A DNA stretch of 64,000 bases from assembly GCF_006345805.1 (NCBI RefSeq), contig NC_042999.1:97960001-98024000 (forward strand). The letters run 5' to 3'. This stretch comes from Octopus sinensis (lineage: Eukaryota). Positions 4,450 to 63,881 of this stretch are shown here, piece by piece (positions within the stretch are counted from its first letter, which is position 1; the number at the start of each line of letters is the position of its first letter). The position numbers and the translations under genes are program-made. Under the pieces are notes generated by a model, which was given only the letters and a program-made list of their open reading frames with translations, was not told the origin of the DNA and did not search any database.

Positions 4450-5385
4450 TGGCCTAGAATGTGAAAGAATTATTAACACCAGATGTATAAGGATATCTAA
4501 TATTGCTACTGCCGAACATTTTCATCAAGAGGAATACTGTCGATGAAACCAATTCCAATGCATGAATATACTCGAGATTTGTTATGCTTGCTCTGGTAAA
4601 AGTTTTGAAGGGGACGCTCATAAATATTTCTTGTGTTGATATACATATACATTCAATAACAGGGGTATTATCTATATTGACCCGAGTGCAATCTTTTCTA
4701 TAGATAGCATTGTATATTGTTTTCGCAATAACATTACGCTGCAATAGGAGGTGGTAACTTGATGGCGTTTATGGGCAGCTGTTGATCACGAGCGTAATAT
4801 TTTTCCTATTTCTTTTGTCCAGTGTAGCTAAGTTCTACTCTTGGATTGTAAAAGAATAACCTTCAAAGTTTGGCATGTTGTAACGGCTTCGAGTGGAATG
4901 CTGAGTGTTTCTCTTCCAAGACTTTTGTTGCGGTATACTAGCGTAGTAATTCTGAGACCACATGAGAAGTTATCGGGAAGTAAATACTTCTTAAGGAGTT
5001 CAATACTGATTTATAGGATATTGTTCTTTTCACATTTGAATGTATTTTCACTAATACGTATTTGTAGAATTTGTCGCGTGAATCGCGAGAGACCGAAAGA
5101 CCACTGATGAGAATATTTTTGGTTTGGAGAACGGTTTCTGCGTTCAGTTATCAAATATCGCCAAATTCCATCTCCACATCAGAAAATGTAACTAAATCCA
5201 GTTATTTTTCAGCATTGTACATTTTTCGGGTATAGATCTTGAAATCGACTACAAAGAAATCATGGGTTACTCTGGTGTCTCTTACTGTTAGCATATGGTC
5301 AGTGGATTTTCCTAAAATGAAAAGAAGCGCAGACAGACTGTCTCTGGAATATTACCTTTAAGATATTTATATCAGAGATATGAAT
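4450..5385 (-). mobile_element. R4/Dong-like RLE non-LTR retrotransposon fragment
   Basis: Minus strand gives FEGYSFTIQE and QRNVIAKTIYNAI, homologous to MRHDVVAKTIYNSI near 33615. Its 5' end abuts the (TATG)n array at 5390-5500. Confidence 0.7.
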
Positions 5386-6137
5386 TTATGTACGTACGTA
5401 CGTACTTACTTACTTATGTATGTATGTATGTATGTATGTATGTATGTATGTATGTATGTATGTATGTATGTATGTATGTATGTATGTATGTATGTGTACG
5501 TACGTGTACGCGTGTGAGCGTGTGCTTACATTCATTGAGTGATATATAATCTTGATGTGGATTTGCTCATTTCTTTCATGGTATTCTTTCTGCTCCACTC
5601 CTTCGTCTCTCCTTCCCACCACGTTACCACCTAATATCACCACCACCACCAAAACCACCACCACCACCACCACCACACCACCACCACCACCACCGCCTCC
5701 GCATCGTTATCATTAAGTGCATATCGGCTTTATCGGCTAATAAAAAAATAATCTCGAGTTTGTTTAATTTCCTTTTCCTTAATTAATATCTTGCTAATTA
5801 ATATTTATCTAATTCTCTAATGCTGGTTAATGTATTAATTCTATTAATTTGAAAGTTCGGCAGACAAGAATACGATTGGTTGTCAGCCAGAACACGTCAG
5901 CAATGTTATTTCCTTTGCAGCTGTCTCATTGCTATGACATCCTATAATTAATATGAGATTTTGAGGAATTCATGAGCAGTGAAAAACAGTTGCAAAGGTT
6001 TGAGACGTGTTCCAGAAGAATCGAATACCGCATCAGGGTTTCTATATTTGCTTGACGTCGATAGTACACACTTGGGAAAACCACGAATGACGCTGCTGTC
6101 CATTTTCCCGGTTAATTTGAAAACAAAAAGTGTCTAT

Positions 6138-32351: not shown

Positions 32352-32605
32352 ACCGAGCCGATCCCACGTAAATTGTCAGTAAACATTTCAAATTCAGTTC
32401 CGCAACTTCATTACGACTAATTATTTCTAACTTCTCTTACTCATCATAATTATTATTTATCAAACAACGTTATTTTAAGTTTCACATACATACATACATA
32501 CATACATACATACATACATACATACATACATGCATACATGCATACATACATACATACATACATACATACATACATACAACATACATACATACTACATACA
32601 TACAT

Positions 32606-32709
32606 ACCCTGTTGTTGAAGTTGGAATTCCAATGAAGCAACCTTGGATCTAGGTTAGAAACCGGTTCTTTCTCTACTGGCAAGAATTTTTGAAATAAACT
32701 GAATAATGA
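32606..32709 (+). mobile_element. 3' terminus of R4/Dong-like element (subfamily 1) within (CATA)n
   Basis: Matches the reverse complement of 61670-61772; (CATA)n on both sides. Confidence 0.75.
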
Positions 32710-32756
32710 CATACATACATGCATACATACATACATACATACATACATACATACAT

Positions 32757-33126
32757 CTCTAGTACTCTAACTATAAATCCTCACTTGTGCCTATCGTTAT
32801 AAGTGCATTAGACTATGTACCAATAAATTGTCCACAGACACTTAGAAGTATTCGGTTTCAAGAAGAGTAAAAAAAAAAAAAGCTGACTCGGATTTTCCAA
32901 ATCCAATCTATTTGTGGCACAGAGAAGATATTCCGAAGATTCTCCATTTGAAATCATTATATGAATAGCAGCACACACTTGGACGCATGCGTCGACAGCT
33001 CAGCCAACACACCAACTCGACCACATATTTACAAACACCGAGAACTCTCTTAACTCAAGAAGTTTTGATGCTTTGTTAGCGACGGGCATGAACTTTCTGA
33101 AGAACTTACATAAAACTCAGAGAAAT
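32757..33126 (+). mobile_element. 3' end of R4/Dong-like element (subfamily 2) within (CATA)n
   Basis: VPIVISALDYV and LTRIFQIQSICGT, then a 3' UTR homologous to the reverse complement of 63026-63320. Confidence 0.75.
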
Positions 33127-33486
33127 CATACATACATACGTACATACATACATACATACATACATACACACATACATACATACATACATACATACATACA
33201 TACATACATACATACATACATACGTACATACATACATACATACATACATACATACATACACACAAACACACACACACATACATACACACATACATACATA
33301 CATACATACATACATACACACATACGTACATACATACATACATACATACATACACACACACATACACTACATACATGCATACATACATACATACATACAT
33401 ACATACATACATACATACATACATACACACATACGTACATACATACATACATGCACATACATACATGCATACATACATACACATAC

Positions 33487-34130
33487 AAAAGTGGCAACAA
33501 AACCCTTGGGTCTCCAAGATACAACCGAATATGTAGATTATGTCATATTTCTGTGGAAGACGTCACACAAGTGATTATAAGCTGCCCCAAAATGTCATCA
33601 AGTTACTACCTCCCTATGCGACACGACGTTGTCGCAAAAACTATATACAATTCCATCCAGAAAAAAAGAGTGTCTTGGAATAAATATAGAGAGTCCTCCT
33701 GCTGCTGAATACATACACAAACATCAATGCTAGGAATACTGGTGGAACATTGCCATCAAAACATCTGTTAAATGTAAACATAACAGGCCGGAAATTGCTT
33801 GGGACAGACAAAAATGTATGTACCATCATAAAGGTCAGCTGTCCTGCTGATGTGAATATCTCTTTGATTATAGATTCACATTTATACCGATGATAATTGG
33901 TGCACTTGATTTTGTGAGTAAAGCGTAAATGACAATCTTGGTTAAGCTAGGGATTTCAGAAAAAGAAATCAACTAACATTACAAATACAAGCTGTTAAGT
34001 TGAACAGTAAAAATATGCAAGACTTTTGTCAAGTTTAAAATGTCACATTGTTTTTGTTATCTATATGGCGCTCGTATCTTTGTTAGAAACCAGATTCTTC
34101 CTCAGAGGAAGAATTTAAATAATTAAAAAC
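33487..34130 (+). mobile_element. R4/Dong-like element: zinc knuckle and RLE endonuclease fragment
   Basis: CRLCHISVEDVTQVIISCPKMSSSYYLPMRHDVVAKTIY, then KHNRPEI..WD and VSCPADVN; begins directly after (CATA)n; the 3' UTR motif gttagaaacc is shared with 32650. Confidence 0.85.
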
Positions 34131-35395
34131 AGAAGAAAACACACAGACACACACGAATATATATTTATAGTTACATATGTATATATGTATATGTGTGTGT
34201 GTATATAAATATATATACAAGGACACTATACAGTGGCATACATATATACATATACGAATTTATATTTTTATGTATTTATATGTATATATGTATGTGTGTG
34301 TGTATGTGTGTGTATATACATACATACATACAAGGACACTATACTGCGATAATCTAATATTTAGAGGCCCTCAAGTATTCAATTGCTTTCTTTGGCAATC
34401 AGAAACACAGAAGGAACTTGTATCGAAACATTGAAGAAAACACTGGAGAGATTCCTAACCAATATACCAGAACAGACAACTATACAAAATTACACTTAAC
34501 ACTACTGAAAAAGAAAACATAGTAGTAAATAAACAAAGATAAGGCAATGCTCCAGCTTGGCCGCAGTTCATTGAGTGAGTCCACTAAAAGAATAAATTTG
34601 CTATTCAGTCTTACAGTCTTTTTCTGTTTGTAGCTTATATTTTTGCGAACTCTCTCCATGATATTGCAAAATTATTGCTTAAAAATCACGTTTTTCGTAT
34701 GTTTCAGGTGCATGGATTACTCAAAAGAGAAGAATTTTATTACTTGTCTTATCAATATAGAAATATATATATTCTTGTTTTATGGCATAAAGGGGATACA
34801 AAATAGCACGCGCAGAAACAGACTCTGGCGTACATTAAAAAAGAGTTACACACACACATATATAGATGTATGCAAAATAGACGAGCACACACAGACAAAG
34901 ACTAGACATTCATAAACACGCATATACACACACACACAGAATGAGCATACACAGACACAAAGACATAATTACATACAACCAGATCGTTACACATATACAT
35001 ATAATATCCTGGCATTTTCTGAATGAACAATATTTTAGCATACATGAGCGCGAGACAAAGAGAGAAAGAGTGTGTGTGTGTGTGTGTGTGTGTGTGAGGG
35101 GAAAAGAAAAAGAGAGAGGGTGTGAGAGAAAGAAATAGTCAGGGATATAGAGATATAGAGAAGGAGATGAATATAAAGAAGGGAGAGTAATGTAAGAGAT
35201 GACAATAATGTTCAAAGGCTGTCATTGTAGCGAGATATATTTGTGTTCGCCACATAAGTATAGTGTGTGTTTGCATATACATTTATATCTTTGCATCTAC
35301 CAGTGTATGTATGAATGTACATACATATATATGTACATGCATACATAATGGGTGTATGAGTTACACGCTGACGGTACTAAAGGCATTCATTGCTA

Positions 35396-60752: not shown

Positions 60753-61777
60753 AAAATAACACAATTTATATATAATTAAATAAATTAATCGATCAATTTA
60801 TAATTTGTTTATTAAATAAATCTCTATATCAAAAAGAAATTATTTCTGTAGATTTCAAGTGTCTTGACTCTAACTGAATTCGTTAACTTTTCGAGGGTAC
60901 TCGTAAAATATGTAGTTTTTTTTAAGTGGGGTGCTTCGTGGTTTACTTGAAACGAATGTCATGAATCTTTTTAAAGGAGTGCGTACTGAGATTTTCTATG
61001 GGTATTGTCATTTTTCAAGGGGATGTACTTTAAACTTTATGTAATATATTTTCATTACAAGTCGGGGGGGATAACTGTGGAGTGTGTATGTGTGTTACGA
61101 GGGTAGGGGTGACGCTGCTCTCTTTAACGTCACAATATTGTTGATGTACATTTGTCTGAACAGTTGCTGTTGTTAATATCGTTGCTGTTATTATTTATCG
61201 TGTCGCTGGTGGCAAAGCGGTGGTGATGAAGAGGTATAAGGAAGGTAATGGACTCGTAAGAAATATTACCATAAACACTACTTTCTCCGCCACTTTCATA
61301 TCATACCCTTTCACCTCGATTTCGCCGAATATTCTAATGAGCAGCGAAGTGTTTCGCTTTACAGCTGCTTTCACGCAACAAAGGACTTTCTGTTCCTACA
61401 CATTAAAAATTCTGCCTCTCTGCTCCTCAGTCTGCCTATTTTCCCATCCATCCATCCATCCATCCATCCATCCATCCATCCATTCGTATGCTTCTTGCTC
61501 TATCTCTCTGTCTGTATGTTTCTATTTCAGTCAACCCATTTAACCATCAGTCAGTTTTCTACTTGTATGTATGTTGACTTTTTGTCTACCAACGTATGTA
61601 TGTATGTATGTATGTATGTATGTATGTATGTATGTATGTATGTATGTATGTATGTATGTATGTATGTATGTCATTCAGTTTATTTCAAGATTTCTTGCCA
61701 ATAGAGAAAGAACCGGTCTCTAACCTACATCCAAGGTTCCTTCATTGGAATTTCAACATCAACAACAGGGTATTTTT

Positions 61778-62394
61778 CAGTTCTATATTTAAAAGATGAG
61801 GAATTATGTACATTATTTACATTATTTACATTCGACGGTTATTTGTCTTCATCTTGTTTGTTGTTAACACAACGTTTCGGCTGATATAACCTCCAGCCTT
61901 CTTCAGGTGTTCTGATGTCATATGGGCCGCATAGCTTTTGTATCTTTTCGGAGAGGCCTTTCACATTGGGTAGACAGACTGTGGACAGTTTATTGGCCTC
62001 ATCCTCTCTCTTCTTCATAATTTGAGTGGATAGTATACTTTTGGGGTAGTTGTTGCTTAAAAGATCGTTATTGAGTTTGATCATTACTTTGTGGTGTGTA
62101 CCACGATCGCTACTTATATTCTTTGCACGATGTTTTAGGCACTGAGCAATCTTTCTCTTTACACTGAATGGATGGTGGGAATTGAAGTTGAGGTATCGTC
62201 TAATAAAGGTCGGCTGGCGCTATACGGATGTCCTGAATCCATACTTGGTGCGTGTTTATTGAGGTCACATGATCTAACAGCACTTGGACATCTCCCTGTG
62301 GGGCCAGAGTATAAAGGTGTCAACATATCGCAGCTATAGGGTTGGTTTTAGTGGTGTTGATCCTGAAGCCAAATTCCATCGAATGTAAATAATG
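61778..62394 (-). mobile_element. Penelope (Poseidon-like) deleted copy with 14-bp TSD
   Basis: aacagggtattttt at 61764-61777 and 62395-62408; LRYVD, YLNFNSHHP, VCLPNVKGLSEKI; 19-bp inverted end (62376-62394 vs 61820-61838). Confidence 0.9.
61866..61911 (-). ncRNA. Minimal type I hammerhead ribozyme motif, canonical core
   Basis: AACAC-CTGAAGA-a-GGCTGg aggttata tCAGCC-GAAAC-GTT-GTGTT; perfect stem I, 6-bp stem II, palindromic AACGTT. Confidence 0.85.
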
Positions 62395-63025
62395 AACAGG
62401 GTATTTTTGTGTGTGTGGTATGTATGTATGTATGTATGTATGTATGTATGTATGTATGTATGTATGTATGTATGTGCAGACTTTTTTTTTTTATGCATGT
62501 ATTCTTATGCATATAGTTACATATCTAGATATGCTCATATATATTTAAATGATAAACTTCTGGAAAGTTTTACAGATTTTTACAGTTCCAGTGATGGATT
62601 GAATCTGTAGTCTTCGAATTAGCTTTCTCCTTTCTTGTTTTTGAGAAACCTAATTTCTGTAGATTGGTATTTAGACAGTGTGTTACATATCTCAGAGCCC
62701 CAATAATTACAGGTATAAACCTGAACATGTAATTTGGGTAGAGTAACTGCAGATTTCTCAATAGTTCAGCATAGCTGCCCTTTTTTTCATTGATCTTCAG
62801 CTTTATGTTAACACCCGCTAGGCAGTTAATTTCTACAACTGTGCGCAGTTTCTCTTCTCAATCCCAAATCATTATATCAGGTCTGTTGTGCTTACATTTT
62901 TATTGATGTATGTATGTATGTATGTATGTATGTATGTATGTATGTATGTATGTATGTATGTATGTATGTTTGTATATGTATGTATGTATGTATGTGCGTA
63001 TGTATGTATGCATGTGCGTATGTAT

Positions 63026-63320
63026 GCAATTTTCTTCGAGTTTTGTTTAAGTTCTTCTTAAGAGGGTCCAAGCTAGATGCTAACAAAGCGACAAGACTTT
63101 TTGAGTGAAGAGAGTTCCTGGTGTTTGTGAATATGTGGTTGAGTTTGTGTATTGGTTGAACTGTCGATGCACTCACCCAAGCGAGTGCATCTATTCCTCT
63201 AATGAATCTCAGATGGAGAATCTTTGGAATGCCTTACAAATCTTCACGGTGTCGCTAATATATTGGATTTGGAGAATCCCAGTCAGTTTCTTTTTCTCTT
63301 TCTTCGGAAAGATTTTGTAC
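63026..63320 (-). mobile_element. R4/Dong-like 3' end (subfamily 2)
   Basis: LTGILQIQYISDTVKICKAFQRFSI* plus a 3' UTR homologous to 32860-33126, running into (CATA)n. Confidence 0.75.
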
Positions 63321-63335
63321 GTATATAACCTAATA

Positions 63336-63624
63336 CAGTGCTCCTCAAATTATCTAATTTTTTTCCAGTGAGCCAGAGACCGGTAATATTTCTTAGTAAT
63401 ATTAATTTATACCGGAAGCAATATATATATATAATGAATATAATAAAAGTTGACAATTTTTTAATCTTATATTTTGTAAACAAATACAATATTACATAAG
63501 CACTTTATAAGTATTTTATAAGCATTTAAAATGTTTCTTTCTTTTCTGGAAATTCGCCGCGTACCGGCAGCTGATGGCTCGCGGTCCGACACCGGTCCGC
63601 GGACCACCACTTTGAGTAGCACTA
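63336..63624. mobile_element. hAT/Charlie-type MITE
   Basis: TIRs cagtgctcctcaaa and tttgagtagcacta; 8-bp flanks acctaata and gcctaatg (6/8). Confidence 0.7.
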
Positions 63625-63881
63625 GCCTAATGCACTTATAATGATAGGTACAAATGAAAATTTACAGTCAGGGTAAAAAAAAAACTGTAAGTTCCACATT
63701 AATTCACCATAAAGGTTCTCCTTTTCTTGTACGTTGATATCGTTGGGTATGGATGTATGTATATTATAGCTTTATTTTCATAATTTATATCTCACCAATA
63801 GAGAAACAGCTGGTGCCCAACCCAGTAATAAAGCCTCTTTGTTAGAATTGGGACAAATTTCCCACGAATATATAGCCGTTG

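Follow-up and report, generated by a model that had tools for sequence, protein, structure and literature searches.

We analysed a 64,000-nucleotide stretch of Octopus sinensis DNA (the window) and found that a stack of repeats at 61595-63735 is built from two 5'-truncated, minus-strand LINEs of the R4/Dong type, which carry a restriction-like endonuclease and both terminate in (CATA)n when read on the element strand. We consider it likely that the family to which they belong entered (CATA)n arrays already in place, by target-primed reverse transcription, and that the stack represents two dead copies that arrived in this way. The association between family and repeat is strand-specific and real, and target-specific insertion explains it best; we directly observed a one-ORF anatomy, CATA at both junctions, nesting of copies in the tracts of earlier ones, and a separation from the Dong elements that are tied to TAA. 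The stack is composed as follows:

61595-61670/61671, minus strand: (CATA)19 array, equal to (TATG)19, the 3' flank of the subfamily-1 copy
61672-61777, minus strand: UTR-B, the terminal 3' UTR segment of subfamily 1, with a predicted stem-loop common with subfamily 3
61778-62394, minus strand: secondary insertion of 617 bp, presumably Penelope-like, with a short inverted piece at its ends
62409-62475, minus strand: internal CATA tract of the subfamily-1 3' UTR, (CATA)14 plus a short CA run, with (TATG)14 at 62419-62474
62476-62544, minus strand: UTR-A of subfamily 1, from the stop codon to the internal tract
62545-62905, minus strand: 5'-truncated subfamily-1 ORF remnant, covering the C-terminal endonuclease domain between the PD motif and the stop codon
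62906-63025, minus strand: imperfect (CATA)n array, at once the 3' flank of subfamily 2 and the 5' flank of subfamily 1
63026-63327, minus strand: 3' part of subfamily 2, with the 3' UTR at 63026-63208 and the final ORF codons at 63209-63327
63336-63624, no strand assigned: multicopy MITE of 289 bp, sitting inside the subfamily-2 copy
63625-63735, minus strand: subfamily-2 ORF remnant upstream of the MITE, with the 5' truncation point near 63735
63747-63762, minus strand: short, degenerate stretch of CATA where the subfamily-2 copy has its 5' junction, with no perfect run beyond 10 bp

Translation yields the C-terminus of a restriction-like endonuclease in both elements, with no Pfam name returned for these remnants, and the subfamily-1 ORF remnant, 89% alike to a full-length copy (L284), holds one stop and one frameshift. 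The stack copies are dead and without sign of host function, and no RNA sequencing run was listed as carrying the stack sequence searched. The 617-bp insert is bracketed by a perfect 14-bp direct repeat (61764-61777 and 62395-62408); Pfam and Rfam searches with it were blank, and we take it to be Penelope-like from its motifs. The MITE is bordered by a degenerate 8-bp duplication (6/8) at 63328-63335 and 63625-63632, and is presumably hAT-like, going by its features. Both repeat families are multicopy in the contigs of 4 public sequencing runs, where each border of the MITE shows loose ends. The 5' junction of the window copy is spanned by one public run, which may be the window's own source and so does not count as independent support.

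The initial annotation had placed subfamilies 1 and 2 on the minus strand amid (CATA)n, and the arrays do lie where it had put them, with each element ending in the repeat. For subfamily 2 it had given 63026-63320, of which the 63026 end stands, the copy in fact reaching 63735 past the 289-bp MITE. The span proposed for subfamily 1 (61670-62905) is right in position (62905-61672) and wrong in continuity, the element being split by the separate insertion at 61778-62394. Related sequence also occurs on the plus strand of the window, in another stack:

32484-34136, plus strand: first stack, beginning with CATA, a lone subfamily-1 UTR-B (32604-32709), CATA and subfamily 2 (~32750-33126)
33127-33481, plus strand: CATA, first stack continued
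33514-34136, plus strand: subfamily 3, first stack continued

The element at 33514-34136 (plus strand), directly behind the large CATA array of the first stack, belongs to a third subfamily that the initial annotation does not mention. Aligning the two stacks as had been suggested, we find that the reverse complement of 61672-61772 agrees with 32607-32710 at 90/99 aligned bases (91%), and that of 63026-63330 with 32836-33126 at 226/284 (80%); the subfamily-2 partner named earlier therefore does match, and it begins at ~32750, right after the CATA array, rather than at 32860.

Both stacks hold subfamily-1 UTR-B and subfamily-2 sequence, 30 kb apart and on opposite strands, as one inverted segmental duplication would leave them. 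We give that origin next to no credence: elements are ordered CATA/UTR-B/CATA/subfamily 2/CATA/subfamily 3 in the first stack and short CATA/subfamily 2/CATA/subfamily 1/CATA in the second, the identities of the two shared parts are unequal, inserts are not common to both, BLAST of 59-64 kb against 29.5-36.5 kb returns no unique flank in common, and copies elsewhere are closer (97% and 86%) than the two stacks are to each other. Order, identities, private inserts and unshared flanks refute a single segmental duplication, and the claim that the second stack is independent holds. Elsewhere in the window, a much older fragment of the lineage lies at 4689-5269 (minus strand), matching at 67-80% over short pieces; some 120 bp upstream of it, and on the same strand, is a CATA array (5390-5505).

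The initial annotation had also argued that element orientation flips with the strand of the microsatellite, as strand-coupled, sequence-specific insertion predicts. Orientation alone is equally expected if the element makes the repeat as a 3' tail, so that the 5' junctions are the real evidence. We therefore collected genomic copies by similarity to their 3' part, blind to their flanks, scored 30 of 40 loci per family, and counted as CATA-bearing any 5' junction with a perfect CATA run of >=9 bp within 30 bp upstream, after dropping 5 copies that ran off the locus edge, 8 subfamily-1 rows with only UTR-B in range and 1 false hit. The CATA run was present in 14/20, 12/27 and 15/29 copies of the three subfamilies, and an opposite-strand run in 0, 2 and 1. 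Pooled after removal of two duplicate loci, 40/74 junctions carry CATA and 3/74 carry TATG (strand p=1.5e-9), bearing out the prediction genome-wide; the 40 include one case that is the UTR-A end of a subfamily-1 host. Truncated copies with a CATA junction break off at many different points, and the background rate of such runs is 0.985% (20,000 random windows). Full-length 5' ends share one sharp start position and carry CATA in 19/30 cases and TATG in 0/30, a set that includes 2 duplicate rows and a few anchors ~8 bp off. At the other end of the element, 21/28, 15/28 and 18/29 copies of the three subfamilies carry CATA.

As a control from the same genome, the TAA-type Dong (1 short locus dropped) shows CATA at 0/29 and TAA at 10/29 of its 5' junctions, with TAA at 23/29 of its 3' ends. 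Conversely, no TAA run was found at the junctions of the three CATA-associated subfamilies (0/76 5' rows, 0/85 3' ends). The control Dong is itself a canonical, TAA-flanked element coexisting in this genome (L251-L280), 93-95% alike among copies, with flanks that include CAA and TGA variants.

These counts bear on whether the elements merely accumulated where they are tolerated, that is, inserted at random and survived in microsatellite-rich, gene-poor DNA, as a passage in PMC3812793 proposes for Drosophila Waldo-A/B. The genome is very microsatellite-rich, and a local control 300-500 bp upstream of the junctions is also enriched in CATA (19/203), both of which speak for such accumulation; it predicts no strand bias, however, whereas we see 40 against 3, and the TAA Dong would not then show TAA in place of CATA in the same genome. 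Unless the junction calls are wrong, the strand bias refutes passive accumulation, and we assign it a negligible probability.

The 34/74 truncated copies whose 5' junction has no CATA run of 9 bp, many of them showing CA or TA runs or nothing, raise the alternative that the true target is short or loose (a unit or two of CATA, or alternating DNA rich in CA/TA) and that long arrays grew afterwards by slippage. Many junctions do have short or mixed CATA/CA/TA runs, and the internal tract of subfamily 1 varies from 16 to 178 bp among copies. Against this, CA (142) and TA (466) arrays outnumber CATA arrays (86) in a random 1 Mb of the genome, at the cut-offs applied, yet strand-specific CATA dominates the junctions, and a relative described below (L333) is embedded in extended, almost pure (CTTA)n at either end. 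We regard a loose target as unlikely, though as the most serious competitor to insertion into pre-existing arrays. Arrays at the 3' end of another relative (L332) and in the flanks of three genomic copies (L029, L059, L237) drift to the related tetramers CTGA, CGGA, CAGA and CGTA.

A further account dispenses with target choice altogether: the element would make the repeats, with a CATA tail at its 3' end and with 5' CATA arising by template jumps onto the tail of another RNA or by slippage synthesis. The frequent CATA on 3' ends agrees with it, as does the result that target-site duplications are no more common than in shuffled pairs (8 observed vs 6.8 expected, p=0.375), and RTE elements are reported, in the abstract of PMC2887409, to generate microsatellites from their 3' ends. 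Several observations speak against it, to the point that we consider it highly improbable. Another family member lies <=450 bp upstream in only 6/40 of the 5' CATA tracts; guests split a host tract that is known to pre-exist; and most long arrays have no adjoining family member. For this last point we used a sample picked by position (1 Mb in 100 stretches), in which 0/60 CATA arrays of >=5 units directly abut a family member, and the 2 with a family hit <=250 bp away have it on the other strand and off the junction, so that the target exists without the element. In the same position-picked sample, 4/5 copies with coding sequence have 5' CATA, as judged by eye. An unclassified ~540-bp repeat also abuts CATA arrays, with the same end at both loci, at L003 (where it lies within the internal CATA tract) and at L166:9752-9986; it is possibly another CATA-tied family, in either orientation.

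The guests in question belong to the CATA tract inside the subfamily-1 3' UTR, which had been noticed in the window and proves to be a trait of the family. In 37 hits UTR-B comes no more than 200 bp after UTR-A, the gap being 16-178 bp (median 69); among the other UTR-A hits, UTR-B lies farther off in 8, another family member follows in 5, and nothing follows within the locus in 6, some loci in this tally having been fetched twice. At L015 a guest copy splits the internal CATA tract of its host, with the host UTR-B coming after the guest and the tract intact in other copies, and L336 probably has the same arrangement, a tandem duplication of UTR-B being also possible there. Together these loci amount to a paralogous comparison of filled and empty sites, in which CATA is present in the empty form. 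Of 36 pairs of neighbouring 3' ends, 35 agree in strand, a figure inflated by one tandem array and by repeated loci. Lone UTR-B copies, such as that at 32604-32709, would come from reverse transcription that stopped and joined at the internal tract. At L027:1501-2827, ~10 tandem units of subfamily-1 UTR-B plus CATA form a minisatellite born from the 3' end of the element.

We rejected the idea that UTR-B is an independent SINE or the product of 3' transduction: most copies have it behind UTR-A, and it is kin to the end of subfamily 3 (cross searches, E 0.0005-0.03). Accordingly, the earlier claim that two distinct 3' UTR types are tied to CATA stands as to the association, while the types are not all unrelated, subfamilies 1 and 3 having a terminal stem-loop in common. 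A terminal stem-loop is predicted for all three subfamilies, with two-sided changes in 6/9 pairs that reflect few independent events and with weak folding energy; by their 3'-end sequences, subfamilies 1 and 3 are clearly kin, and subfamily 2 weakly so.

On the model known from R2, the protein would bind the CATA repeat, the predicted endonuclease of the element would nick the TATG strand, which would then serve as primer, possibly aided by pairing with CAUA at the 3' end of the RNA, and the cDNA would then be joined to upstream CATA. Every insertion would leave target on both flanks, with subfamily 1 adding another in its 3' UTR, so that same-strand stacks would build up. In the window, subfamily 2 probably came first, followed by subfamily 1 into the 3' CATA of subfamily 2, and then by the MITE and the Penelope-like piece.

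The family is large. A first look at the 2.7-Gb genome gave at least 1502, at least 1783 and at least 2958 candidates for the three 3' ends, and the position-picked 1 Mb contains six 3'-end hits plus one further copy, which points to a copy number of the order of ten thousand. The full-length subfamily-1 copy L284 measures ~4.0 kb. All copies fetched from this genome are broken, none with an intact ORF, and there is consequently no young, clean junction. The best-matching subfamily-1 copies differ pairwise by 10.9%, or ~0.06 each from their centre, in a sample biased toward young copies; for scale, a passage of PMC13282606 equates a divergence of 0.065 with 18 million years. Relatives are present in Octopus bimaculoides (75%) and also in Argonauta.

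The encoded protein comprises, in a single ORF, a three-helix N-terminal domain, a reverse transcriptase, a CCHC motif and a PD..E..K endonuclease. RVT_1 was found in genome copies and in L333, and the CCHC and PD..E..K motifs are present in broken genome copies as well; among 29 complete C-termini of the lineage, all have CCHC (29/29) and 26/29 have PD..E..K. The N-terminal motif aligns with that of a Dong-like set, and a zinc-finger pattern was found in 0/23 long N-termini. The modelled three-helix N-terminal domain is weakly Myb/SANT-like: Zeste is its best match, and a weak one (Z 6.0, rmsd 2.5, 65 aligned), comparisons with Zeste, TRF1 and GT-1 are weak but consistent (Z 5-6), and Foldseek returned no significant match for this domain. 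In L197, L201 and L211 (subfamily-1 N-terminal coding region) the linker that follows the N-terminal domain contains a (GTA)n tract whose length varies. The model of the L333 protein (pLDDT 86) has R2 as its closest fold.

Around 75 protein clusters match the lineage at 40-67%, after which similarity drops to ~35% with Dong-like insect proteins; the nearest proteins outside the lineage are Dong-like at 32-37%, compared with 16-18% to R2. One Dong-like protein (P0282, 1403 aa) has a precomputed OTU protease domain (PF02338). Scanning metagenomes with a single protein gave no match, while another metagenome scan yielded five contigs (L331-L335). L333 has an intact ORF of ~1147 aa and is flanked at both ends by (CTTA)n; L331 and L332 form a second family, 99% alike to each other and 68% to L333, with the 3' end in (CTTA)n; and the L334 and L335 contigs end before any repeat. 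The evidence for CTTA consists of one contig that shows both element ends and two that show just the 3' end. A link between the 3' ends of these CTTA relatives and the octopus stem-loop was set aside, the two being alike in alignment yet missed by the octopus profile.

Two quick, unrooted trees, built without an R2, HERO or NeSL outgroup or a named Dong/R4 reference, place the CATA and CTTA elements together (SH-aLRT 99-100) and away from the Dong-like set, which includes this genome's TAA Dong. Forcing all octopus elements into one clade is rejected on the quick tree (p-AU 1.9e-6), and with it the idea that the CATA elements are a switch from the TAA Dong of this genome.

We can entertain, as a reading somewhat short of probable, that these elements belong to a widespread and unrecognised animal lineage with a restriction-like endonuclease, apart from the TAA Dongs and specialised on (TACN)n—CATA in octopods, CTTA in another host—in which one octopus subfamily brings along a landing site and thereby gives rise to nested stacks. 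If so, intact members existing, a one-base switch of target could be traced to the Myb-like domain or to the endonuclease; the one-base difference in target together with the intact ORF of L333 makes a natural experiment on how target choice is encoded. Passages of PMC13580325 describe site-specific LINEs with restriction-like endonucleases as being adapted for RNA-templated gene insertion. Targeting of this kind would also explain part of the octopus repeat landscape, and it carries the warning that CATA microsatellite markers in octopus may adjoin multicopy DNA.

No 5' ribozyme was found by Rfam in the five loci with full-length 5' ends or in L333, searches of those five loci and the window locus giving only sub-threshold, microsatellite-driven miRNA noise, and an HDV fold could not be fitted by eye to the conserved 5' end. 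The first 150 bp of full-length subfamily 1 (L301-L330) are sharp and conserved, with several possible hairpins and no Rfam match, and are a candidate for an unusual self-cleaving or promoter structure.

Among known systems, R2 is the source of the target-primed reverse transcription model, targets 28S rDNA and has N-terminal zinc fingers. It also provides the solved structures closest to our elements, both by sequence (E 6e-29) and by fold (E 4e-35), at an identity of only 16-18%; the zinc fingers of R2, mentioned in a passage of PMC7998251, contrast with the 0/23 found here.

The closest known elements are the Dong elements of the R4 clade (Bombyx Dong, DongAg, DongBg, ostracod Dong1/2); the lineage aligns with 28 Dong-like proteins over 1085 columns, N-terminal motif included, at 28% identity. 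The target of Dong is (TAA)n, according to passages of PMC7998251, which cover insects, molluscs and cnidarians, and of PMC3812793, as opposed to (CATA)n here and (CTTA)n in the relative, and unlike Dong, subfamily 1 has a stretch of target within its 3' UTR. The passages of PMC3774820 give Bombyx Dong an HDV-like self-cleaving 5' end, where Rfam found none in our elements. Annotations of octopus genomes list 'Dong-R4' as abundant, with no target given in the passages concerned (PMC13282606, PMC8967140), and in O. vulgaris it amounts to 92.7 Mb in 51 families, the youngest five of which account for 1129 recent insertions (PMC13282606).

Targeting of microsatellites is well known; what appears to be new is the probable CATA or CTTA target for the R4/Dong type. 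The same simple-repeat strategy is followed, in other clades and with other units, by Togen on (TG)n and by some HERO families (passages of PMC4640811), and the targets listed in a section of the review PMC3812793 are ACAY for Waldo, AC for Mino, TC for Kibi, TTC for Koshi and TAA for Dong. The passages on Togen, HERO, Mino, Kibi and Koshi in these two sources name no CATA or CTTA target, and we met no R4/Dong element with either target in the parts of the literature searched, although Repbase or Dfam may record one. The ACAY target of Waldo (WaldoAg1, WaldoAg2, WaldoFs1) covers the same repeat as (CATA)n, but in the passages of PMC3812793 Waldo belongs to the R1 clade and has an AP-type endonuclease, in contrast to the C-terminal restriction-like endonuclease here, so that the two would have converged on one target.
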